Of a stretch of 64,000 nt of DNA, positions 1,716 to 55,557 are shown piece after piece. The translations under genes were made by a program, and so were the position numbers. Under the pieces are notes generated by a model. The model worked only from the letters and a program-made list of their open reading frames with translations, ran no database searches and was not told where the DNA came from. The DNA comes from an uncultured Pirellulaceae bacterium (GTDB lineage Bacteria; Planctomycetota; Planctomycetia; Pirellulales; Pirellulaceae), in the NCBI GenBank assembly GCA_964414815.1, contig CAYPXY010000020.1:3956-67955 (forward strand), in the 5' to 3' direction. Numbering within the stretch: the stretch's first letter is position 1; the number at the start of each line of letters is the position of its first letter.

Positions 1716-4706
1716 ATGAAAACCAACGAAATTCGTCAAAAATACCTAGAGTTCTTTCATTCCAAGGGGCATACCATTGTCCCCAGCGATGTACTCGTCC
1801 CCAAATGGGATCCGACCGTATTGTTCACTCCGGCGGGGATGAACCAGTTCAAGGACCACTTTCTTGGCAAAGTCAAACTTGAATACACTCGGGCTACCAC
1901 TTCGCAAAAATGTCTGCGAACCGGCGACATCGAAAACGTAGGACGCACGGCCTACCACCACACGTTCTTTGAGATGCTAGGGAACTTCAGCTTCGGAGAT
2001 TATTTCAAACGTGACGCCATCCACTGGGCATGGGAATTTCTGACTGACAAAAAATGGCTGGCGATCGATCCGAATCGGTTGACGGTTTCGGTTTACCTTG
2101 ATGATGACGAGGCCGCTGAAATCTGGCAAAACGATATCGGTCTGCCGCTTGATCGCATCACTCGCATGGGCGAGCACGATAACTTCTGGCCCGCCGGTGC
2201 TCCGACCGATGGCCCGGACGGTGTCTGTGGACCGTGCAGCGAAATTTTCTTTCATCCGGACAACGGCCCCGAGTGCGAAATCTGGAATCTGGTTTTCACG
2301 CAGTTCAATCGCGTTGGCGATCCGCCCAACAATCTGATTCCGCTGCCGAGCAAAAACATCGACACAGGAATGGGACTTGAACGCATTGCCGCAACGATGC
2401 AAGGAGTTACCACCAACTTCCATATCGATACTCTGCGCCCGATTGTGAATGCGGCGGCCGAGGTGGTCGGTATCAAATACGATCCCGATTCAGAAAATGG
2501 GCGACGATTGCGGCGCATCACGGATCACATCCGAGCCTGTACGATGGCGATTCACGAGAATGTCTATCCGGGGGCGAACAAGGAAGAGTACGTCATCCGG
2601 CGACTCCTTCGTAGAGCCGTGCTGCAAGGTCATGAAATGGGTTTGCGAGAACCGTTCCTGTACCATCTTGTCCCTGAAGTCGTCAAACAAATGGAGCAAC
2701 CTTATCCCGAACTTCGTGGCACGGTTGATCGGGTGGCTCAGGTGGTCAAAAACGAGGAAAAGAACTTTTTCAGTACGCTCGATGGCGGATTGGCAAAGAT
2801 CGAAACGATCTTCGATGCCATGCGACGTTCCAATCAGGCAACGGTCGACGGAAAAGAGGCTTTCGATCTCTATCAAACGTTTGGTATTCCCGCCGAGTTG
2901 TTTGCCACGATGGCGGAGGAACGAGGGCTTGAGTTTGATTGGAGTGCCTACCAAACGGCCATCGAACAACATGGAATCGACAGCGGTGCCGGTTCCAAGG
3001 GAGTGATGGGCGATTTCGGACCGATCGATGACATCAAGCGGGAAGTTAAATCGACGCCCTTCACCGGATACGCGGAGACGAAAGCGAAGAGTAGCGTTTG
3101 CGGATTGGTTGAAGATGTGGGTGTGCAACAGGCTTCGGTGGATGGCGAAGGGACAGCTAAATCGGATCAGGACCATCAAGCCGTTTCGGAGCAGCGACGT
3201 GTGGGCGCGATTCATGCTCGCGATGATGGGGCCGGGGCGCGCGAGACAGACCGGGAGGTCTATCCCACAAAGTCAGAGGTCTGTCCCACGAAGTCAGAGG
3301 TCTATCCCACGAAACAGTATGTCGTACTGGAAAGCACGCCTTTTTATGCGGAGTCGGGCGGTCAGGTGGGGGATACGGGCCAAATCGTCGGCCCGAGCGG
3401 AACATTTTCTGTAACCGACACGCAGAAGAATGGTGATGTCATCCTTCATATCGGACAAATGATTCAGGGAACGCTATCAGATGGCGATACCGTTTCTGCG
3501 GTCGTTGATGAACCAAGGCGCAATGCCATTCGTAGAGCCCACTCGGCGACGCATATCCTGCACCATGCGCTGCAGAAAAATCTGGGCGAACATGCCCAAC
3601 AACGTGGCTCGAAGGTTGTGGATGACCTGTTGCGATTTGATTTTGCCAATCTCGAAGCCGTACAACCGGCCCAGCTATCGGCGATCGAAACGATGGTGAT
3701 CGATAAGATTGGACTCGGAGGAACCGTTATTGCTGAAATTTTGCCGCTCGAACAAGCCAAGAAAGCCGGCGCGATGATGTTGTTCGGAGAAAAGTATCCT
3801 GATCCGGTGCGTATGGTTTCGATAGGCGATTTCAGCAAGGAACTCTGTGGCGGTACGCATGTCGCTGCGGTCTCGGACATTGAGCGGTTTGAGATTCTGT
3901 CGGAAGAAAATATTTCATCAGGGACTCGGCGCATCCAGGCCATCACTGGGAACCGGGCGCTCGAATATCAAGATCGGGTTCGCGGTACTGCTGAGCAAAT
4001 GGCGACGAAGCTGGGTGTCCGCGCGATCGATCTGCCAAACGCCGTTTTGCAAATCCACGAAGAAGCTAAAAACCTGAAGAAACAACTTGCCGGAACGAAG
4101 AAGGAAGTCCGTTCGCCGTTGGAGACGAGCATCGTCAACCAAACGGACCCAAAGCAACGGTTTCTCAATCAGGATGGAAGGGAGCTGAGTTATCCCGAAG
4201 TTCGCGAACTTTTGAGAACCGTGGCTGGACGGCTCAATGTGTCGCTGCTCGAGGCTGCGGGTCGGGTCGAAGGCATGCTTGCCGAGATTGATCGCTTGAA
4301 AGAACGTCTGGCTCAACAAGGCAGCCAATCGATTGACGTCGATCAGCTCATTGCCAGTGCGGAAACCGCGAGCGGCATGAATTTGATCGTGGCGGAAGTT
4401 CCCGAAACCGATGTGAATCAACTCAAGCAGGTGATTGATCAAATTCGCAAGAAAACAGAATCGGCGGCCATTTTTCTTGCAACCCGACAGGGTGATGACA
4501 AGGTAGTGCTGGTGGCCGGACTGAGCCGAAACCTGGTCGACGCTGGAATGAGTGCCGGCGACTGGATCAAATCAGTCGCTCCGGTCGTCGGGGGAGGCGG
4601 TGGTGGAAAACCCGATCTGGCCCAGGCCGGTGGAAAAGAAGTTGCCAAAATTCCAGAAGCCATTTCCGCCGCAAGAACGTATCTTCAGAATGTTTCGGTT
4701 CGTTAA
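1716..4706 (+). CDS. alaS: Alanine--tRNA ligase (996 aa, longer than the usual ~875 aa)
   Basis: Motifs 'FFEMLGNFSFGDYFK', 'TPFYAESGGQVGDTG', editing-domain 'HSATHILH' and 'CGGTHV', and C-terminal 'GGGGGGKPDLAQAGG'. Confidence 0.97.
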   Translation: MKTNEIRQKYLEFFHSKGHTIVPSDVLVPKWDPTVLFTPAGMNQFKDHFLGKVKLEYTRATTSQKCLRTGDIENVGRTAYHHTFFEMLGNFSFGDYFKRDAIHWAWEFLTDKKWLAIDPNRLTVSVYLDDDEAAEIWQNDIGLPLDRITRMGEHDNFWPAGAPTDGPDGVCGPCSEIFFHPDNGPECEIWNLVFTQFNRVGDPPNNLIPLPSKNIDTGMGLERIAATMQGVTTNFHIDTLRPIVNAAAEVVGIKYDPDSENGRRLRRITDHIRACTMAIHENVYPGANKEEYVIRRLLRRAVLQGHEMGLREPFLYHLVPEVVKQMEQPYPELRGTVDRVAQVVKNEEKNFFSTLDGGLAKIETIFDAMRRSNQATVDGKEAFDLYQTFGIPAELFATMAEERGLEFDWSAYQTAIEQHGIDSGAGSKGVMGDFGPIDDIKREVKSTPFTGYAETKAKSSVCGLVEDVGVQQASVDGEGTAKSDQDHQAVSEQRRVGAIHARDDGAGARETDREVYPTKSEVCPTKSEVYPTKQYVVLESTPFYAESGGQVGDTGQIVGPSGTFSVTDTQKNGDVILHIGQMIQGTLSDGDTVSAVVDEPRRNAIRRAHSATHILHHALQKNLGEHAQQRGSKVVDDLLRFDFANLEAVQPAQLSAIETMVIDKIGLGGTVIAEILPLEQAKKAGAMMLFGEKYPDPVRMVSIGDFSKELCGGTHVAAVSDIERFEILSEENISSGTRRIQAITGNRALEYQDRVRGTAEQMATKLGVRAIDLPNAVLQIHEEAKNLKKQLAGTKKEVRSPLETSIVNQTDPKQRFLNQDGRELSYPEVRELLRTVAGRLNVSLLEAAGRVEGMLAEIDRLKERLAQQGSQSIDVDQLIASAETASGMNLIVAEVPETDVNQLKQVIDQIRKKTESAAIFLATRQGDDKVVLVAGLSRNLVDAGMSAGDWIKSVAPVVGGGGGGKPDLAQAGGKEVAKIPEAISAARTYLQNVSVR
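3255..3317 (+). repeat. Three tandem 21-bp units (GAGGTCTATCCCACAAAGTCA-like) in frame inside alaS, encoding EVYPTKS/EVCPTKS/EVYPTKQ
   Basis: Direct reading of the nucleotide and peptide repeat. Confidence 0.9.
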
Positions 4707-4720
4707 GAAACATTCTGAAG
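4683..4720 (+). terminator. 14-bp-stem hairpin (CTTCAGAATGTTTC / GAAACATTCTGAAG) spanning the alaS stop codon
   Basis: Perfect inverted repeat seen directly. No U-tract follows it. Confidence 0.3.
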
Positions 4721-4880
4721 GGGTGTCGGGAGACGAATCGTGGCTTCCCACGAGCCGCTTTCTGGCGAAAAACGTGTGAATTGGCTCGCTTACCCGTTGA
4801 CCTATCGGGTAGAATGAGCCTAATTTGCTGAAACTCAAAAACTAAAATCAAACTGAAATTAACCCAAACGGAGAAAAGAA

Positions 4881-21044: not shown

Positions 21045-21167
21045 CTGGGCTGGTGGATTTCACTGCTATCACTGTTGATAATATTCGAATCATAACCCGT
21101 AGCGTAAGCGAGGGACCGGGCTTCTTCCCTCGCTTACGCTTCGGGTTATGATTTCCACCAAGCCAGG
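21045..21167. repeat. Family-1 palindromic element copy A, subtype with CCACCAGCCCAG-type ends. Core: CATAACCCGtAGCGTAAGCGAGGGAC ... TCCCTCGCTTACGCTTCGGGTTATGA
   Basis: Near-identical copies at 42348-42481 and 46235-46352 (inverted). Confidence 0.9.
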
Positions 21168-21288: not shown

Positions 21289-21432
21289 GGAATCGTCCCG
21301 AAATAAATTCCTGGTTCTTTTAGTCCATCGTAACCCGAAGCGTAACCGAGGGACGGACTAACCACGCTAGAGTAGTCCCTCGCTTACGCTTCGGGTTATG
21401 ATCAAATACGGAAGTTATTTCAGGATAATTTC
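21289..21432. repeat. Family-1 palindromic element copy B, subtype with GGAATCGTCCCGAAATA / TATTTCAGGATAATTTC ends, about 144 bp
   Basis: About 25-bp core stem. The extended arms match copy D. Confidence 0.9.
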
Positions 21433-22123: not shown

Positions 22124-22232
22124 GAGCTTCAATCAAAACCCGAAGCGTAAGCGAGGGACCGCATTAACAAGCTAGGGCGGTCCCTCGCTTACGCTTCGGG
22201 TTCTGATGAAGATACCAGGATAATTCCTAAAT
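22124..22232. repeat. Family-1 palindromic element copy C, filling the gatC-gatA spacer
   Basis: Core AAAACCCGAAGCGTAAGCGAGGGACC ... GGTCCCTCGCTTACGCTTCGGGTTCTGA. The right arm CAGGATAATTCCTAAA matches copy B. Confidence 0.9.
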
Positions 22233-25064: not shown

Positions 25065-25209
25065 GAATTGTCATGAAATAACATCCGTATTTTCATCATA
25101 ACCCGAAGCGTAAGCGAGGGACGGCATCACCAAGCTGGAGTGGTCCCTCGCTTACGCTTCGGGTTATGATGGACCTTCATAAAGCCGGGAAACTATTTCG
25201 GGACAATTC
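25064..25209. repeat. Family-1 palindromic element copy D (~146 bp) in the serC-serA spacer, starting at the last base of the serC stop codon
   Basis: Core CATAACCCGAAGCGTAAGCGAGGGAC ... GTCCCTCGCTTACGCTTCGGGTTATGA with terminal GGAATTGTCATGAAATA / TATTTCGGGACAATTC. Confidence 0.9.
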
Positions 25210-40045: not shown

Positions 40046-41317
40046 ATGAAAACGCAATACCGGTTATCCCAATGGTTCGTCAAGGCAGCTTTCCTTTTGC
40101 TTGGAGGGTGCAGTATCGGGAATATCGATGCCCAAACGCTCACCACGGTTGTCAATAACGGGGCTCCCTCGAACCGAGCCGATATCGTTTTCATTGGTGA
40201 CGGCTATCAGTCTCATGAACTGGGAACCACCTATAGGTCGCATATTGAGTCGACCTTGGATCACATGTTCGTGAATTCGCTCTCATCTCCATTCAATCGC
40301 TATCGAAACTTTTTCAACGTACATGCCGTCAATATCGCAAGTAATCAATCCGGTGCGGATGATCCCATCAACAACATTTATGTGAATACAGCACTCGATG
40401 CCAGTTATCGATGGGACGGTGTCACTGACCGGCTGTTGTATTTCAGTACCAGCAAGGCGAATAGCGCGGTCAACGCAGCGCTCTCGGGTTCTGGAATTGA
40501 CGTCGATATGCGAGTGGGATTGGTCAATCACGCGAAGTATGGAGGTGGAGGAGGACAGTGGGCTGTCTACTCAGGCGGGAATGCTACGGCGCGTGAAATT
40601 GCACTTCATGAGATCGGACATTCGTTTTCGGGATTGGCAGACGAATATTTCTATGATCCCGACGCCACCTATACCGGAGGCGAGTTGTCTCAGTGGAACG
40701 TCACGAATAACCCGAACTCCGGAAAGTGGGATCGTTGGGTCGGATACAACGATCCCACTACAAACATCGGCCCTATCGGCTACTACGAGGGCGGTCGATA
40801 CTACGCAAAAGGAATTTGGCGGCCATCAGACAATTCCAAAATGCGTGCCCTGGATCGTCCCTTTGACGCGATCAGTCGCGAAAAAATTATTTACGATATT
40901 TACTCACACGTCCGTCCGCTTGACTCCTGGCTTGACAATTCCAGTCTGTTGCTGGATCCGGAATATCTTTGGGTTTCGTCCGTCGATTCGGACGTGATCA
41001 AGGTCAAATGGTACCTCAACGGCGAGTTCCTGAATCGGTTTGGTGAGGACCTCAGTCTTGCGTCGCTGGGATTGACAACCGGTACTTATGAAATCTCTGC
41101 ACTGGCCTACGACGAGATCTTGGACTATTCATTTTCGGGTGGATCCATGGATTGGTGGCGATTGGATTCTTCGAGATTGCAACAATCGGTTTCATGGAAC
41201 GTTTCCTGGACCGCGATCCCTGAGCCTGGCTCCGCCTTCACGATCGTGCTGCTGGCAGGAATGATGTTTTATCGAGTGCGTCCTAAAATGAAATCAAATT
41301 TTGCCCCAGGCGAATAG
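40046..41317 (+). CDS. M64 (IgA peptidase-like) metallopeptidase with a PEP-CTERM sorting signal
   Basis: 'ALHEIGHSFSGLADEY' and C-terminal 'IPEPGSAFTIVLLAGMMFYRVRPK'. Confidence 0.8.
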   Translation: MKTQYRLSQWFVKAAFLLLGGCSIGNIDAQTLTTVVNNGAPSNRADIVFIGDGYQSHELGTTYRSHIESTLDHMFVNSLSSPFNRYRNFFNVHAVNIASNQSGADDPINNIYVNTALDASYRWDGVTDRLLYFSTSKANSAVNAALSGSGIDVDMRVGLVNHAKYGGGGGQWAVYSGGNATAREIALHEIGHSFSGLADEYFYDPDATYTGGELSQWNVTNNPNSGKWDRWVGYNDPTTNIGPIGYYEGGRYYAKGIWRPSDNSKMRALDRPFDAISREKIIYDIYSHVRPLDSWLDNSSLLLDPEYLWVSSVDSDVIKVKWYLNGEFLNRFGEDLSLASLGLTTGTYEISALAYDEILDYSFSGGSMDWWRLDSSRLQQSVSWNVSWTAIPEPGSAFTIVLLAGMMFYRVRPKMKSNFAPGE

Positions 41318-42957
41318 TCGGGATCCAGCAAAACGTTTCCGCCATGATTTTGAGCGATCCGCCAAGCCTTGGATAGCCCGAACCCCAGCCCGCGGCCGGC
41401 TTCACGCCCCGAAAAGAATGGATCAAACAAATGCGACTGAATCGAAGCCGGTACACCTGGCCCGGTGTCGGTAACGGAAAAGCGGATCGAATCTTGAGTG
41501 GGACGATCGACTCTCAGTTCGATTTGATTCGAATCCTTTCGCTGACTTGATCCCTGAATCGACTCGATCGAGTTTCGTATCAGTGCCCTCAATGCGACCG
41601 TTAGTTGTTTTGGATCACATTCCACCGTGGATAGCCCCGGTGCGATGCGAATCCTGAACGGAATTCTGCATGATGGGCTGGATTCCGCTTTTTCATCAAG
41701 CGTAGCAAGTACCTGGCGATTGAGTTCGCAAAGAAACTCTCTCAGGTCCACGACTTCAAAATGGGGCTGGGGCGGGTTCGCAAACAGCATCAAGTCCGAA
41801 ATCATCTCGTGTGTTCGGATGGCCTGCTCGTAGATGATTGCCAGTTTGGCTCGTTTCTCAAGATCGGTCTCATTTTCGATCAGGGTCTGTGCTCGGGACG
41901 CAATATTGGCCAGCGGGTTATTGATTTCGTGGCTTGCTCCGTAGGCCAGTTGTTGCAGCGCACTCATCTTGGCCTGAAGTAGACAGCGCTCGAAGTGATC
42001 AGGCTCTGCCACAGCGACACCCGCCTCAGTAGTCTGCGGCTGGCCAGGTGGAAATCCCAACCCGAAGCGTAAGCGAGGGATAAAACGCGGTCCCTCGCTT
42101 ACGCTTCGGGTTAAGATGGGAATATGATCAACCGTGGTACCCGAGGTTTCCACCCGCTCAGTCTCTGGTACCTGGAGTTGGGAAAGCCAGAATCTGGCGA
42201 CGGGCCTGAGTCGATCATCGTCTTTCCAGTTGCGAACTGCTCGTTTGATCAGGCGTTTGGGCAAATCTTCCGAATCCAGGAGGGAGACCTGAAAAAAGTC
42301 GGCGAGCACATTATCTACCAAGAGGGCTGCTACACCGGAGTCGTCGGCTGGGCTGGTGGATTTCTCTGCGATCACTGTTGATAGCTTTGGAATCACAACC
42401 CGAAGCGTAAGCGAGGGATAAGGCGAGGGACCGCGTTTCTTCCCTCGCTTACGCTTCGGGTTATGATTTCCACCTGCCCAGTCTTCGGTCGTGATCTGCT
42501 GGAGCCATAGCCGGAGAAATTTCAGTCGCTTGACTGGGTTTCTTTCACGTAGAAAACGTTTGAGGGGTCGTTTCCAAATTGAACGACCCCTCATCGCAGG
42601 TTCGGTGTTGCTGTGGTCCATTGAATGGTAATGACTCAGCTCGTTGAGAAGCTTCGCGCGATCGATGTCCAGCCAATCAGCCGTTTCCGAAAGAGACTCA
42701 GGCGAACGATGGTGTTGCTCCCGAAATCGCAACACCGAATGAGCCAGTAACGCTGGGTTGAGCGCCAACAAATATTCCAGCGGTTGCCGTGATTCTTCGG
42801 GCAACTCTTCTGCGTCCGTGCATCCTGGGAAGACTTTATTGCAGTCCGCTTGTCGATCAAGCGACAACAAATACAAAATGTCGGATGCCGGACAGGGAAA
42901 CACCAGGGTGTACTCCCGGTCGGCATGTCGAAAGGCAACGGGTGGGAGAGACAGCAT
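41269..42957 (-). CDS. Sensor histidine kinase whose N-terminal ~330 codons contain two family-1 palindromic elements in frame
   Basis: H-box 'GASHEINNPLANI' and G-boxes 'DTGPGV' and 'GRGLGFGLS'. The ORF starts 54 nt after the stop of the upstream response regulator. Confidence 0.75.
   Translation of the reverse strand: MLSLPPVAFRHADREYTLVFPCPASDILYLLSLDRQADCNKVFPGCTDAEELPEESRQPLEYLLALNPALLAHSVLRFREQHHRSPESLSETADWLDIDRAKLLNELSHYHSMDHSNTEPAMRGRSIWKRPLKRFLRERNPVKRLKFLRLWLQQITTEDWAGGNHNPKRKRGKKRGPSPYPSLTLRVVIPKLSTVIAEKSTSPADDSGVAALLVDNVLADFFQVSLLDSEDLPKRLIKRAVRNWKDDDRLRPVARFWLSQLQVPETERVETSGTTVDHIPILTRSVSEGPRFIPRLRFGLGFPPGQPQTTEAGVAVAEPDHFERCLLQAKMSALQQLAYGASHEINNPLANIASRAQTLIENETDLEKRAKLAIIYEQAIRTHEMISDLMLFANPPQPHFEVVDLREFLCELNRQVLATLDEKAESSPSCRIPFRIRIAPGLSTVECDPKQLTVALRALIRNSIESIQGSSQRKDSNQIELRVDRPTQDSIRFSVTDTGPGVPASIQSHLFDPFFSGREAGRGLGFGLSKAWRIAQNHGGNVLLDPDYSPGAKFDFILGRTR
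42041..42116. repeat. Family-1 palindromic element copy E, inside the kinase ORF
   Basis: TGGCCAGGTGGAAATCCCAACCCGAAGCGTAAGCGAGGGA...TCCCTCGCTTACGCTTCGGGTTAAGA. Confidence 0.9.
42348..42481. repeat. Family-1 palindromic element copy F, inside the kinase ORF. Same subtype and orientation as copy A
   Basis: CTGGGCTGGTGGATTTC...CACAACCCGAAGCGTAAGCGAGGGA...TCCCTCGCTTACGCTTCGGGTTATGATTTCCACC. Confidence 0.9.
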
Positions 42958-43010
42958 GTTAAATTCGCATCTGACCCGCTGCCCGACAATCCAAAAACCA
43001 AAAATCCAAA

Positions 43011-43604
43011 CTAGCTCGCTGCGGCTTCCTGATCTTCCATTTCCAGCATTTCACAGCAGCGTCGGATCAAATCTTCTACTTCGAACGGTTTGTTCATGAA
43101 ATCATCGGCTCCGGCAAGCCGCAAATCATCGATCTTGTTTTGCTCGACCATGCCCGAAATACAAATCACCCGAACCGACTTCATCGTGGGATCGTTCCGC
43201 ACTCGTTGGCAGACTTCCTTGCCATTGATGTCCGGCAGCATCACATCGAGAACCACCATTTCCGGGCGAAAATCCTTGACCAGCATCCCGGCACCGAATC
43301 CGTTGTTCGCCGTACGAATGTCCCAGCGACCATCGGCTGTGAATGCATCCACCATCAAGTCTACCAGTTCCTGATCGTCATCCACGATCAACAAGCGATG
43401 CTTTCCATTTTCAAGAGCATCGGTGGGGATTCCGTTCTCTTTCATGAAGGCATAGAGCTGCTCGCGGGGAATGCGACGAAAACGGCTTCCGGGAACTCGG
43501 AACCCTTTGAGACTGCCGTTGTCAAAACAGCGAATAATGGTTTGCTGGCTGACTTTACAGATTTTTGCGGCTTCGCCCGTCGTGAAGACCGTTTTATAAC
43601 TCAT
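43011..43604 (-). CDS. Response regulator with an N-terminal excisionase/MerR-like HTH and a C-terminal receiver domain
   Basis: 'FTTGEAAKICKVSQQTIIRCFDNGSLKG', 'LLIVDDDQ', 'DVMLPDINGKE'. The start is set at 'MSYKT', 6 nt after a GGAGAGG site. Confidence 0.85.
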   Translation of the reverse strand: MSYKTVFTTGEAAKICKVSQQTIIRCFDNGSLKGFRVPGSRFRRIPREQLYAFMKENGIPTDALENGKHRLLIVDDDQELVDLMVDAFTADGRWDIRTANNGFGAGMLVKDFRPEMVVLDVMLPDINGKEVCQRVRNDPTMKSVRVICISGMVEQNKIDDLRLAGADDFMNKPFEVEDLIRRCCEMLEMEDQEAAAS

Positions 43605-44056
43605 GACCATCCTCTCCCTAGGTGGTGAAACCAACCTCAAAACACGAGGTAGCGGCTTCGTTCGTTCAGTTTGAATTGACGAAGACTGGGTTCTTGAATC
43701 GTGCGGTCGAGCTTCTTCATCCGGCAAAGATTCGCCAAGATTCCCTACAAGAGTCTTTAGCTTGTCTCACTGACCGTGTTTACCGATTTCAATCAAATTG
43801 TGGATTTGATGCAATCAGCAACGTCAACCGAATTCGCCACGCTGACCAGGATTACCAATCTTAACTTACTGCCGATTATAGCGAGCTGGAAAAGCTGGTC
43901 AAGATTGATTGAAACTGCGTAAATCACACAAGAATCGCTTGTTCGCTTTCGATGTTCTCGCTAAACTTCGCCCGAAACCAGGCGAGAATTTGAAGAGATT
44001 CGGGCTCATTTCATTTTTCTAACAAACCTTCCATTGCATCTTTTGATCCCCAAACA

Positions 44057-46213: not shown

Positions 46214-46234
46214 TGAACAGCAGGTTGCAGATGG

Positions 46235-46352
46235 CCTGGTGGAAATCATAACCCGAAGCGTTAGCGAGGGAAGAACTGCGGTCCCTCGCTTACGCTTCGG
46301 GTTATGATTCGAATATTATCAACAGTGATCGCTGAGATATCCACCAGCCCAG
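46235..46352. repeat. Family-1 palindromic element copy G, inverted relative to copy A
   Basis: CCTGGTGGAAATCATAACCCGAAGCGTTAGCGAGGGA...GGGTTATGATTCGAATATTATCAACAGTGATCGCTGAGATATCCACCAGCCCAGG. Confidence 0.9.
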
Positions 46353-52257: not shown

Positions 52258-55200
52258 ATGAGTTACACTATTTGGAGTACGGAAATTCAAATATTTTCTC
52301 GGACGGTGCCTTACATGTTGATTCGTGTTTTTATCATTGGGTGCATTGTCACCGTTGCGGTCGGAGCCTTCAGCGTTGATCAGGATCAGGATTCGCCCGT
52401 CCAGCCGACCTCCTTGCCTGATCGCGTTTCTTTCAACGCTCACATCCGCCCGATCATGTCGAACACCTGTTTCGTCTGTCATGGGCCGGACGAAGAAGCC
52501 AACCTCAGTGATCTGAGGCTCGATTCGTTTGAGGCCGCAGTGGAAGGAGGCGCGATCAAGCCGGGAAACGCGCTGGCGTCGGTGCTGTTTGAACGTCTCA
52601 CCGACAAGGATTCTCCGATGCCGCCCGCCGATTTTAGGCATCAATTAAGTCCTCACGAAATCGAGCTGTTGAGGAAATGGATCGAACAGGGCGCCGACTA
52701 CGAACAGCACTGGTCGTTCATGTCGATCGAGCGACCCGACGTCCCTGAAGTCGCTCATGCAGATCGAGTCGCGAATCCGATTGATGCATTTATTTTGCAG
52801 CGACTGGAGCAAACATCGCCGGAACTGGCCGATCGGGCCTTGGTGAGAGCCGACAAGCGAACGCTGCTTCGCCGGTTGAGTCTCGACCTGACTGGATTGC
52901 CGCCCACGAACGCGGAGCTTGAGCAATTTCTGGCCGACGATTCGGCGGACGCCTACGAGCGGCAGGTCGATCGACTTCTGGCGTCGCCCCGATATGGTGA
53001 GCGGATGGCGTCAAGTTGGCTCGATGTCGTTCGGTTTTCGGATACGGTCGGTTTTCACGGCGATCAGAACCATCGCGTGTTTGCCTATCGCGACTATGTG
53101 ATTGAGTCGATCAACGACAATAAACCGTTTGATCAATTTACAAAAGAACAACTGGCTGGCGATCTGCTGGACCATCCAACCGACCAGCAGCGAATCGCCA
53201 CCGCATTGATTCGACTGAACATGATGACTCGCGAAGGCGGAGCACAACCGGGCGAGTACATTGCGAAATACACGGCGGATCGGGTGAGGACGATTGGAAC
53301 CGCTTGGCTGGGGCTGACGACGGGTTGCGCCGAATGCCACAATCACAAATACGATCCGCTGACAATTCGTGATTTTTATTCCTTGGGAGCATTTTTTGAC
53401 GACATCCAGCAATGGGGTGTTTATCACAGCTACGACTATACGCCCAATCCTGATCTGCGAGGATTTTCCAACGATCATCCGTTTCCACCCGAGTTGCGTT
53501 CGCAAAGTCAATCGCTGATCGATCAGATTAAAAGGCTTGAGCTGGCGATGGCTTGTTCGATCGTGCAGGAAGTCGGTCAGAAGGCGTGGCATCAGCCTGA
53601 ATTTCTGGAGTGGCTGGAAAAGATGCATGACGATCTGAAAAAACATCCCGACGGATGGACGCCACTTGCAATCACGGAATTTGCTTCTGAGAAAGGGACT
53701 GATATCAAAGCGCTCGATGATACGCTGTTGCCGACCGGACAACCCAACGCGGAGGATGTCATCACCGTGACGGCGAACGTCGATCAACCTACAACGATCA
53801 AGGCGATTCGGCTCGAAGTGCTCCCGGATGAAGCCAATGGCGGAAATGTGGGGCGAAGCAACGGGCGGTTCAGTATCTCGATGTCGGTTTTCAGTCCGGC
53901 CGATCAAGAAGCAAAAATTGCGTTTGCTCAGGTTGATCGCCTGAATCCAAATCGATATTACAGCGGGTTTGAATCGCGATTTCTTTCGGGGGCTTGGCGA
54001 TCCGGGCCAGCCAGATGGCAGCTCCCGGCGGACGAGATGCGTTATCCACATACGGCGGTTTATCATCTGGAGTCACCCCTGGAAATTACAGAAGGCCAGG
54101 CGATCGTTTTCAAGATCGCCAGTCCTGACATCGGCCGATTCAGGATTTCGATCTCTCCGCTGACTCGATATGTTGCAGGGATGACCGCATTGACGGACGG
54201 ATTGCAATGGTCGGCTGATCGGATCCATGAGCCTCATGTGATTGCGGGTGAGCAACTGGCCATGTGGATTGCCGCTTGGGTGCTCGCCAAGACTCCGGCC
54301 AATGATCTTTCCGAATCGGTGAAACGGTTGCGCGATGAGATCGCGGAATGCCGAAGTGGCTATGCGATGACGATGGTGACCGAGCAGGCTGATCCGAAAA
54401 AGCGACAGCAAACGCGCGTTCTACCTCGCGGGAATTGGCAGGACGAATCGGGGGAGAAGTTACTGCCCGATACTCCATCATTCCTTCCGAAATTGCCGGA
54501 CGTTGGTGAAAGGCAAATGACACGACTCGATCTGGCGAACTGGTTGACTTCGAAAGAAAACCCGCTGACCGCACGGCACTTTGCGAATCGGACGTGGAAA
54601 CATTTTTTTGGCACGGGGCTTTCAAACCAGCTTGACGATCTGGGCAATCAGGGTGAGTGGCCCAGCCATCCCGAATTGCTGGATTGGCTGGCCGCCGAGT
54701 TTCAGTCGGATTGGGATATGAAAAAGCTGGTTCGATTGATCGTGACCAGCAACACGTATCAACAATGTGTCGCGGGTGACAGCCGCAATGCTGAAATCGA
54801 TCCGTATAACCGCTTGCTGGCGTCGCAGGCTCCGCGACGGCTGGAAGCAGAAACGGTTCGTGACAATGCGCTGGCGATTTCTGGGTTGCTCAACGTCGAT
54901 TACGTGGGTGGGCCGAGTGTGTTCCCCTATCAACCGGAAAATTACTACGCGAATCTGCAGTTTCCGGATCGACGTTACGTCGCCAGTCCTGATTTTCTTC
55001 AGTACCGCCGCGGCGTGTATGTTCACTGGCAGCGAACATTTTTGCATCCTTCCCTGCTCAATTTCGACGCTCCGGCGCGCGACGAATGCGTGGCCGATCG
55101 ACCCCTGTCCAATAGTCCGCAACAGGCCTTGACGTTGCTCAACGATCCTCAGTTCGTTGAGATGAGCGTCGCCTTTGCAAACCGATTGTTAAATGTCGCC

Positions 55201-55557
55201 AAGCAACCCATCCCAACCCGAAGCGTAAGCGAGGGACCATCAGAACTCTTAGGTGGAAATGCACGTGACGATGATGTCAAGGTCCATTCTGATTTCACGA
55301 CGCTGCTCGACCAGGCTTTCACGATCGCGCTCTCCCGACCGCCATCGCCCATGGAACGCGACGGCCTCGAGCGGCTCTATCAACGCCAGAAGGAACACTA
55401 CACTCACAATGCCGAAGATCGCAAGTCGCTGTTGGCGAACTTGCGATCCATCGATTTACTCAAATCCTCGTCGGACACCGATCAAATTGAATTGGCCGCA
55501 TGGTCGCAAGTCTGTCGCGTGATTTTGAATTTGCATGAAACCATCACACGATACTGA
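52258..55557 (+). CDS. PSCyt1/DUF1549/DUF1553 protein, 1099 aa. The probable start is the internal Met at 52315
   Basis: 'CFVCHGPDEE', 'CAECHNHKYDPL', and C-terminal 'VILNLHETITRY'. Confidence 0.9.
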   Translation: MSYTIWSTEIQIFSRTVPYMLIRVFIIGCIVTVAVGAFSVDQDQDSPVQPTSLPDRVSFNAHIRPIMSNTCFVCHGPDEEANLSDLRLDSFEAAVEGGAIKPGNALASVLFERLTDKDSPMPPADFRHQLSPHEIELLRKWIEQGADYEQHWSFMSIERPDVPEVAHADRVANPIDAFILQRLEQTSPELADRALVRADKRTLLRRLSLDLTGLPPTNAELEQFLADDSADAYERQVDRLLASPRYGERMASSWLDVVRFSDTVGFHGDQNHRVFAYRDYVIESINDNKPFDQFTKEQLAGDLLDHPTDQQRIATALIRLNMMTREGGAQPGEYIAKYTADRVRTIGTAWLGLTTGCAECHNHKYDPLTIRDFYSLGAFFDDIQQWGVYHSYDYTPNPDLRGFSNDHPFPPELRSQSQSLIDQIKRLELAMACSIVQEVGQKAWHQPEFLEWLEKMHDDLKKHPDGWTPLAITEFASEKGTDIKALDDTLLPTGQPNAEDVITVTANVDQPTTIKAIRLEVLPDEANGGNVGRSNGRFSISMSVFSPADQEAKIAFAQVDRLNPNRYYSGFESRFLSGAWRSGPARWQLPADEMRYPHTAVYHLESPLEITEGQAIVFKIASPDIGRFRISISPLTRYVAGMTALTDGLQWSADRIHEPHVIAGEQLAMWIAAWVLAKTPANDLSESVKRLRDEIAECRSGYAMTMVTEQADPKKRQQTRVLPRGNWQDESGEKLLPDTPSFLPKLPDVGERQMTRLDLANWLTSKENPLTARHFANRTWKHFFGTGLSNQLDDLGNQGEWPSHPELLDWLAAEFQSDWDMKKLVRLIVTSNTYQQCVAGDSRNAEIDPYNRLLASQAPRRLEAETVRDNALAISGLLNVDYVGGPSVFPYQPENYYANLQFPDRRYVASPDFLQYRRGVYVHWQRTFLHPSLLNFDAPARDECVADRPLSNSPQQALTLLNDPQFVEMSVAFANRLLNVAKQPIPTRSVSEGPSELLGGNARDDDVKVHSDFTTLLDQAFTIALSRPPSPMERDGLERLYQRQKEHYTHNAEDRKSLLANLRSIDLLKSSSDTDQIELAAWSQVCRVILNLHETITRY
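55212..55237. repeat. Half copy of the family-1 core (CCCAACCCGAAGCGTAAGCGAGGGAC) inside the DUF1553 coding region, translated as PTRSVSEGP
   Basis: Read directly. Followed by GGTGGAAAT, as in the arms of copies E and G. Confidence 0.85.

Follow-up and report, generated by a model that had tools for sequence, protein, structure and literature searches.

Introduction

Rickettsia palindromic elements (RPEs) are hairpin-forming repeats of ~100-150 bp that lie between genes and also in frame inside genes that are probably functional (Ogata et al. 2000, as cited in PMC3733652). Repetitive extragenic palindromic (REP) elements are short imperfect palindromes, often arranged as inverted doublets with a spacer (Di Nocera et al. 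2013, PMC3733652; Bertels & Rainey 2011, PMC3116915). REPs of the GTAG/CGTC superfamilies occur in several phyla and are mostly intergenic; a minority lie wholly within open reading frames (ORFs), with the frame preserved (PMC3733652). uvrA and other repair genes carry REPs, including the uvrA of Opitutus (PMC3733652), and REPs are also known inside tnpA_REP genes (PMC6006769). Among miniature inverted-repeat transposable elements (MITEs), those of Coxiella burnetii (PMC5896051) and the cyanobacterial Nezha (as cited in PMC3733652) alter proteins. Finally, class-3 TnpA_Y1 (HUH) enzymes are found principally in Planctomycetes and are associated with flanking REP-like hairpins in high copy number (Quentin et al. 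2018, PMC6006769), a study that describes neither in-frame insertions of class-3 hairpins nor their spread across the phylum. Here we examine a 64,000-nt stretch of DNA from an uncultured Pirellulaceae bacterium (assembly GCA_964414815.1, contig CAYPXY010000020.1, positions 3,956 to 67,955 of the forward strand; hereafter the window), in which two copies of a composite palindromic element, family A, lie within a gene for a two-component sensor histidine kinase.

We conclude that the two family A copies very probably inserted independently, in opposite orientations and with the reading frame kept, into the N-terminal domain of a genuine sensor kinase. A full element is bounded by terminal inverted repeats (TIRs), is flanked by 7-bp direct repeats, and encloses a core of two inverted 22-nt arms.

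The likeness to Rickettsia RPEs, the precedent invoked by an earlier, sequence-only reading of the window, lies in the presence of the element in frame in an ORF with homology on both sides, to which extra peptide segments are added. In contrast to family A, RPEs come from an unrelated phylum and have neither a reported structure of TIRs plus a 7-bp duplication nor a 22-nt REP-doublet core. We would therefore treat family A as an analogue of RPEs, not as a member, with no sequence kinship expected. The analogy is apt, but in-frame insertions of REPs and MITEs are more widely known than that single precedent implied (PMC3733652, PMC6006769).

Family A shares with REPs and with REP doublets forming hairpins (REPINs) an imperfect palindrome of 20-40 nt in many copies, inverted doublets, and arms in frame in genes, including uvrA. 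Family A differs in that the doublet sits within a longer, TIR-bounded shell with flanking 7-bp repeats. The GTAG/CGTC tag of classical REPs is present neither in the arm consensus nor in the flanks: the arms start AA-CCC and end GGG-A. Like MITEs, family A elements are small, non-coding and TIR-bounded, form stable hairpins, and occasionally insert in coding sequence: they have TIRs, flanking 7-bp repeats (in four copies) and a length of 122-134 nt without coding capacity of their own, as five of the six consensus frames contain stops. They differ from the described MITEs in sequence, and their core is a REP doublet rather than a degenerate insertion sequence remnant.

We also compared the arm with the hairpins of Planctomyces limnophilus, Legionella and Solibacter given in Table S1 of PMC6006769. 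The class-3 hairpins resemble it in layout: a stem of 3-4 bp is followed by a GA(A)/GA internal loop, then by a second stem of 2 bp, with a GTNA loop at the tip. For Planctomyces limnophilus, GCCGGAAGCGTGAGCGACGGG and ACCCGAAGCGTAAGCGAGGGA agree at ~16 of 21 positions; a stem pair is exchanged in compensatory fashion, G-C for C-G, and the base in the GTNA loop differs. The 5' CnGA foot of class-3 hairpins is absent; in its place is a constant AA, preceded by lineage-specific bases, for example ATCAT, CACT or TCGT. Judged by these resemblances, the arm core appears REPIN-like and closely related to class-3-associated hairpins, and we make no claim of REPtron membership. In-frame palindromic insertion is an established kind of event, of which the present locus is a new example in Planctomycetota. 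The sequence-only reading was aware of no description of such elements in this phylum, and our literature search likewise returned no published planctomycete case and no direct description of the arm sequence, the element peptides or a planctomycete MITE or REP.

Results

Two family A elements lie in frame within the kinase gene

The minus-strand ORF of 562 codons that contains the two copies carries both of the peptides quoted in the sequence-only reading, and its 562-aa product is identical to the kinase ORF annotated at NCBI on a 69,107-bp contig (P0001). The features of the locus are as follows.

41269-42957, minus strand: sensor histidine kinase ORF, 562 aa; Pfam HisKA at aa 334-394 and HATPase_c at aa 448-558
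42348-42481, plus strand: copy 2 of family A, 134 nt, near-consensus; the gene reads WAGGNHNPKRKRGKKRGPSPYPSLTLRVVIPKLSTVIAEKSTSP, aa 159-204
42411-42422, plus strand: GCGAGGGATAAG, 12 nt duplicated within the left arm of copy 2, as seen in the alignment of family A copies
42397-42462: REPIN-like core of copy 2; its two inverted 22-nt arms are separated by 22 nt
42341-42347 (TCGTCGG) and 42482-42488 (TCTTCGG): direct repeat flanking copy 2, 6/7 match
42040-42161, minus strand: copy 1 of family A, 122 nt; the gene reads ERVETSGTTVDHIPILTRSVSEGPRFIPRLRFGLGFPPGQ, aa 266-306
42059-42112: REPIN-like core of copy 1; its two inverted 22-nt arms are separated by 10 nt
42033-42039 and 42162-42168: 7-bp repeat flanking copy 1, CCGCAGA and CCAGAGA on the gene strand, 5/7 match
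562-aa kinase: element-gene junction peptides ...QQITTEDWAGGNHNPK... and ...GFPPGQPQTTEAG...

Both intragenic copies are full-length, TIR-bounded composite elements of family A, and they lie in opposite orientations. Copy 2 has the boundaries originally read from the sequence. Copy 1 had been taken for a 76-nt element at 42041-42116; it extends over the full 122 nt, in the orientation opposite to that of copy 2, and its outer shell has diverged: relative to the consensus its arms are identical at 44 of 44 positions and its shell at 51 of 68. Copy 2 measures 134 nt instead of 122 because of the 12-nt internal duplication, itself a multiple of 3. When the 7-bp repeat is included, the net insertions come to 129 nt for copy 1 (122+7) and 141 nt for copy 2 (134+7). 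Both are multiples of 3, as the sequence-only reading had proposed to check.

We aligned the kinase first with 14 homologues and then with 101, and found that neither inserted segment is present in any of the 101; the comparison with related kinases that had been suggested thus identifies both segments as insertions. A profile hidden Markov model (HMM) built from the 101 homologues, with the query left out, matched the intact kinase in two blocks, aa 1-157 (E=5.6e-15) and the kinase core at aa 319-558 (E=4.9e-119); the 161 residues between the two matches correspond to just 64 profile positions. We then deleted each element from the DNA in silico together with one flanking 7-mer. Double excision kept the frame, created no stop and gave a protein of 472 aa, within the homologue range of 430-500 aa, that aligned end to end as a single domain (HMM positions 6-434). 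The family-profile score rose from 428.5 bits for the intact protein to 434.7 without copy 1, 440.4 without copy 2 and 449.7 without both. In-frame insertion is supported because excision restores a collinear protein, the homologues are without the inserts, and the N-terminal domain is conserved.

The two inserts behave alike in a structure prediction, another check that had been proposed. AlphaFold2, run on a 102-sequence alignment, gave a mean predicted local distance difference test (pLDDT) score of 78.4, with the N-terminal domain and the kinase core modeled confidently. Scores were under 50 over most of aa 159-203 and across aa 268-317. Upstream of copy 2, most of the N-terminal domain scored above 90, in a helix reaching ~93; between the two inserts the values were 63-90, and the dimerization and histidine phosphotransfer (DHp) helix climbs from ~78 at aa 319 to above 90. 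The inserts are thus low-confidence loops with confident helices on their conserved-domain sides. Both are predicted to occupy linkers, one within the N-terminal domain between helices and the other between the N-terminal domain and the DHp helix, and in the model they add loops of 47 and 43 residues that are predicted to be disordered. At the RNA level, copy 1 folds at -68.7 kcal/mol (z=-8.9) and copy 2 at -80.9 kcal/mol (z=-13.2).

The open frame of copy 2 includes, at 42433-42459 on the gene strand, the strongly basic peptide NPKRKRGKKRG, which resembles a monopartite nuclear-localization-type motif. A paper on planctomycete nuclear localization signals ('NLS'; PMC5381049) does not mention this motif. 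Basic peptides derived from the element could inflate motif-based predictions in planctomycete proteomes.

The N-terminal region of the kinase

The kinase gene lies directly downstream of its regulator gene.

43011-43727, minus strand: cognate response regulator with HTH_17 and REC domains (Pfam); likely start ATG at 43606

The distance from the regulator stop to the kinase ATG is 53 nt (42958-43010), one less than first counted. At the locus of the homologue P0005 (L117), an HTH_17+REC regulator likewise lies upstream of the kinase, 36 nt away, so that synteny is as in the window; no arms were found at this locus or at that of a further homologue (L118), the two homologue loci examined. At its other end the kinase ORF overlaps the 3' end of a convergent Peptidase_M64-family gene (40046-41317, plus strand) by 49 nt (41269-41317).

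The product has the full set of features of a HisKA-type histidine kinase. Pfam matched PF00512 (HisKA, E=4.7e-10) and PF02518 (HATPase_c, E=2.3e-15), with H, N, G1, F and G2 boxes, and the motifs are intact: the invariant H343, N462, D497/G499, F511 and G521-S529, with GRGLGFGLS kept. The N-terminal domain has no Pfam match and is conserved among homologues. The best 120 homologues listed are mostly 430-500 aa long. Those aligned share the N-terminal region and begin with an ML.LPP...LPCP motif; M1, P68, W95 and W257 are invariant among 15 sequences. The best overall identity of the kinase to any homologue is ~45%. Together with the homologue-only profile match to aa 1-157, these results indicate that the N-terminal region of ~320 aa is, on comparative grounds, real coding sequence.

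Anatomy of family A

We defined family A by aligning its four longest copies: the two in the kinase gene and two intergenic ones.

21045-21166, plus strand: family A copy of 122 nt between genes, used as reference; its flanking 7-bp repeat, GGCGAGT, is perfect (7/7)
46231-46352, minus strand: intergenic copy of family A, 122 nt, between NAD(P)HX dehydratase and argG; flanks match at 5/7

The consensus is 122 nt long. In all four copies, 17-nt TIRs of the form CTGGSCTGGTGGAwwTC stand at both ends, which carry CTGGGCTGGTGGATTTC. Between the TIRs lie an asymmetric segment of 26 nt, confined to one side, a stem extension of 5-6 nt (ATCAT/ATGAT), and the core, in which a 10-nt spacer separates the two inverted 22-nt arms. 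The flanking 7-mers of the four copies match at 7/7, 6/7, 5/7 and 5/7; by binomial calculation, the chance of a match of at least 5/7 in one pair of 7-mers is ~0.013. With up to 3 mismatches allowed, the 22-nt arm, AACCCGAAGCGTAAGCGAGGGA, matches 16 sites of the window, and none in 100 shuffles. On its own, an arm folds into a small hairpin, CCC-GAA-GC-GTAA-GC-GA-GGG, with the structure ..(((...((....))..))). and an energy of -7.4 kcal/mol.

The same arm doublet occurs elsewhere in the window in a different shell, and once as a decayed remnant.

21332-21397, 22137-22202 and 25100-25165: core-only copies with a family B shell; arm doublet with a 22-nt spacer, flanks resembling TTAGGAATTGTCATGAAATAACATCCGTATTTTCATCAT
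55215-55236, plus strand: decayed copy with one surviving 22-nt arm, in frame (PTRSVSEG) in ORF 52258-55557 (plus strand), within the PSD1 domain of a PSCyt1-PSCyt2-PSD1 protein

From their sequences, the arm doublet core is best read as a module common to at least two composite elements, families A and B, in one genome. The sequence-only reading had held the element to be otherwise intergenic. This is correct for the other full copies (21045-21166 and 46231-46352) and for the core-only copies, none of which has a long ORF across it. It does not apply to the 55215 copy, which is in frame in a coding sequence and in which one arm is intact and its partner decayed. There, the PSD1 (DUF1553) match takes up 286 aa to cover 243 profile positions, and its score rises from 294.4 to 300.8 bits when 20-27 aa around the arm are removed.

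Few reading frames through family A are free of stops: one of six in the consensus and two of six in a variant. As the sequence-only reading had supposed, chance is an unlikely source of the open frame. One frame, WxGGNHNPKRKRGKKxGPSLTLRVMIRILSTVIAxKSTSP, is open in every copy, and copy 2 is read in it. The second, ...ITRSVSEGPxFFPRLRFGL*FPP, has a single TGA in the consensus and is stop-free in variants with GGGA for ATGA beside the right arm; in copy 1, which is read in that frame, the TGA is replaced by GGA. The stop-free version, ...RLRFGLGFPPG, is also present in the family A copy of an 85-aa ORF, P0126, which lies on a 93,752-bp NCBI contig apparently from the same genome, and the open frame of copy 1 may therefore be inherited. 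We had considered the change from TGA to GGA in copy 1 as removal of a stop after insertion, an idea that we softened given the stop-free variant (GLGF) in this other copy.

P0126 was the one match in a protein search with element-encoded peptides, a search that is not usable as a census of in-frame copies. Two metagenome scans with family-A-specific patterns returned 0 matches and then 1 unrelated intergenic match (L116). Family A appears private to this genome. Rfam gave no match at gathering thresholds; microRNA and small nucleolar RNA hairpin models that scored below threshold are chance matches.

The arm in other Planctomycetota and other genes

The arm itself is widespread. In a species-representative genome set, the exact 22-mer was present in at least 112 stretches among the matches listed, nearly all of them from Planctomycetota: its hosts include Pirellulales, Planctomycetaceae, Schlesneria, Planctomyces, Gemmataceae (L003) and Ca. 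Kuenenia (L032). Among Pirellulales isolates it is found in Novipirellula sp. SH528 (L052) and Neorhodopirellula pilleata Pla100 (L082/L100). Such phylum-wide constancy of sequence is unusual for a REP-type repeat. Exact arms also lie on three contigs labeled non-planctomycete, namely L038 (an Abditibacteriaceae chromosome, OZ255721.1), L081 (a 2.2-kb contig of a Novosphingobium metagenome-assembled genome, MAG) and L108 (a 120-kb contig of an Alphaproteobacteria MAG), and on three viral-collection contigs (L113-L115, IMG/VR). These could reflect binning contamination, horizontal transfer, or carriage by phage or prophage.

The fetched loci hold 79 arm doublets, whose spacers measure 0-56 nt, together with 66 singlets; the stem extensions that flank the arms are lineage-specific. 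The inner stem pair 9-16 is GC in 242, AT in 16 and mismatched in 7 of 265 arms, counted per sequence and not per independent event. The most variable base is position 13, the N of the GTNA loop. Some loci contain single-orientation, head-to-tail arrays of arms with a period of ~33-34 nt (L035:22-111, L015:4873-4993, L017, L069, L072 and L079). Such arrays cannot form the long hairpin, which suggests the single 22-nt mini-hairpin as the relevant unit.

Hairpins are depleted from the interior of genes. Across 116 loci, 17% of them lay deep in ORFs (at least 60 codons on each side), compared with 64% of intervals drawn at random from those loci. This depletion fits a selective filter on insertions. 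Two genes show arms in frame nonetheless.

L015:4873-5038, in ORF L015:2387-5851, plus strand: uvrA with four tandem arms and one inverted arm, in frame; Planctomycetaceae MAG
L070:4070-4139 and 4679-4737, in ORF L070:1736-5485, plus strand: PSCyt/PSD protein with two hairpins, in frame; Pirellulaceae MAG

The uvrA arms encode ITRSVSEGSPPVTRSVSEG...PSLTLRV and add ~45-50 residues; the alignment of the protein to PDB 9gxk chain A is interrupted between residues 691 and 703. The L070 ORF encodes a 1250-aa PSCyt1/PSD3/PSD5/PSD4/PSCyt3/PSD2 protein in which two complete hairpins lie between the Pfam matches to PSD and PSCyt domains.

Search for a mobilizing enzyme

We scanned the window and 776 kb of fetched loci for HUH/Y motifs. 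No class-3 tnpA_Y1 gene (NHVH ... YV[VI]xEQ) was found by this motif scan. It returned one class-2-like gene for a REP-associated tyrosine transposase (RAYT), L051:3816-4385 (minus strand), which is not flanked by the arm. This RAYT-like ORF, of 189 aa with DHLH ... YIHYNP, belongs to a Planctomycetaceae MAG and lies 3 kb from a hairpin of the arm family. In L010, two inverted arms stand 2 kb apart, but the genes between them are ordinary ones, lipA and one for a membrane protein, and include no transposase. For the shell, the combination of TIRs and a 7-bp duplication suggests a MITE-like element and a transposase of the DDE type.

Discussion

Our data are most simply explained if a non-autonomous family A element transposes and duplicates 7 bp of its target. 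Every insertion would then add a multiple of three nucleotides, 129 or, with the 12-nt duplication, 141, and would never shift the frame. The kinase copies sit in exactly the two frames that can be stop-free. A selective filter would remove disruptive insertions and leave those in stop-free frames and at structurally permissive sites, and the kinase, with two extra disordered loops, would still be made and active.

Several observations weigh against this account. When every insertion adds a multiple of three and one or two of six frames are open, an open frame alone does not argue strongly that the gene still functions. Expression could be impaired by the mRNA hairpins of -69 and -81 kcal/mol. 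Evidence for the 7-bp duplication comes from four copies, and in two of these the match is just 5/7; target duplication at the borders of REPIN cores in other genomes was not above expectation. No transposase is present among the 28 ORFs scanned in the window. In addition, each window protein that was checked is a singleton at 90% identity, so that the kinase has no close orthologue and no true empty site.

A different view is that the intragenic REP arms are kept for a function of their own at the level of DNA or RNA, as a site bound or cleaved by an HUH-Y1 enzyme or a host factor, or as an element of mRNA processing or stability. We consider this rather unlikely. The contrast within copy 1 favors it: under decay equal to that of the shell, arms identical at all 44 positions would be expected with a probability of ~3e-6 (0.75^44). 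So do the sharing of the exact 22-mer by several orders of Planctomycetota despite variable spacers and flanks, and the covariation of the inner stem, which is rarely mismatched. Yet copy 1 may descend from a diverged subfamily whose arms were conserved for mobility, and the covarying arms may all come from one lineage. Moreover, the second arm of the 55215 copy is gone, which shows that arms do decay where they lie, and no interacting protein was identified in the motif scan of the window and the fetched loci.

It is improbable, in our judgment, that the insertions inactivated the kinase, leaving a young pseudogene or a non-working N-terminal domain whose frame is open through the length of the element and a stop-free landing. 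Two open insertions have a prior chance of a few percent under these rules, which is not negligible genome-wide, and the hairpins in the mRNA are very stable. Nevertheless, no stop or frameshift has arisen in 1.7 kb. This is so despite the 25% divergence of the copy 1 shell and the decay of its flanking repeat to 5/7, which suggest long residence. The catalytic motifs and the conserved N-terminal residues are all intact, both inserts lie in predicted loops and not in helices, and arms of the same kind are tolerated in essential-type genes such as uvrA.

The sequence-only reading had also raised the alternative that the kinase starts at an internal methionine, aa 331 (MSALQQ), and that the 330 codons upstream are an untranslated leader or a decaying ORF. 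Met331 does lie just before HisKA, with both elements upstream of it. Such a start is very improbable: at the protein level, the region upstream of Met331 shares homology with the N-terminal domain of the 101 homologues, the residues M1, P68, W95 and W257 in it are invariant among 15 sequences, the homologues are 430-500 aa long, and the gene begins directly after its regulator here and at the P0005 locus. Untranslated DNA would not be expected to stay stop-free for 330 codons or to be collinear after excision. For the ancestral gene, these sequence comparisons already contradict an internal start. Misassembly is scarcely credible: the source is a 69-kb NCBI contig from a metagenome bin, and repeats are a classic cause of such errors, but misassembly joins unrelated flanks and does not make precise in-frame insertions, and here both flanks of each copy belong to one gene in one frame, collinear with homologues after excision, and each copy has its own flanking 7-mers and private substitutions.

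Independent in-frame insertion of the two family A copies into a genuine kinase gene remains our preferred explanation. More tentatively, and with doubt outweighing confidence, the 22-nt arm can be read as the working unit of an ancient REP system that spans the Planctomycetota, is probably serviced by class-3 HUH-Y1 enzymes, and is actively maintained even inside genes. Maintenance may proceed by recognition, gene conversion or selection, and would account for the perfect arms of copy 1 beside a shell at 75% identity.

As far as comparison of sequences can establish it, the kinase gene offers a nucleotide-precise case of mobile palindromic DNA that adds peptide segments to a signaling protein without destroying its frame. 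The rule that element length plus 7-bp duplication is a multiple of three gives a simple mechanical reason why such insertions are tolerated in genes. This rule, and the phylum-wide conservation of the arm, including perfect arms in a diverged intragenic copy, are the less ordinary aspects of the system. The findings link a widespread planctomycete repeat to the poorly characterized class-3 HUH-Y1 'REPtron-like' systems, for which the 22-nt hairpin offers a concrete substrate to study biochemically. Annotators should expect TRSVSEG...PRLRFGL and NPKRKRG...SLTLRV in planctomycete proteins, along with spurious small ORFs built from them. If the wider interpretation is true, proteins throughout the phylum, uvrA and sensor kinases among them, repeatedly receive peptide loops grafted on by a REP system.

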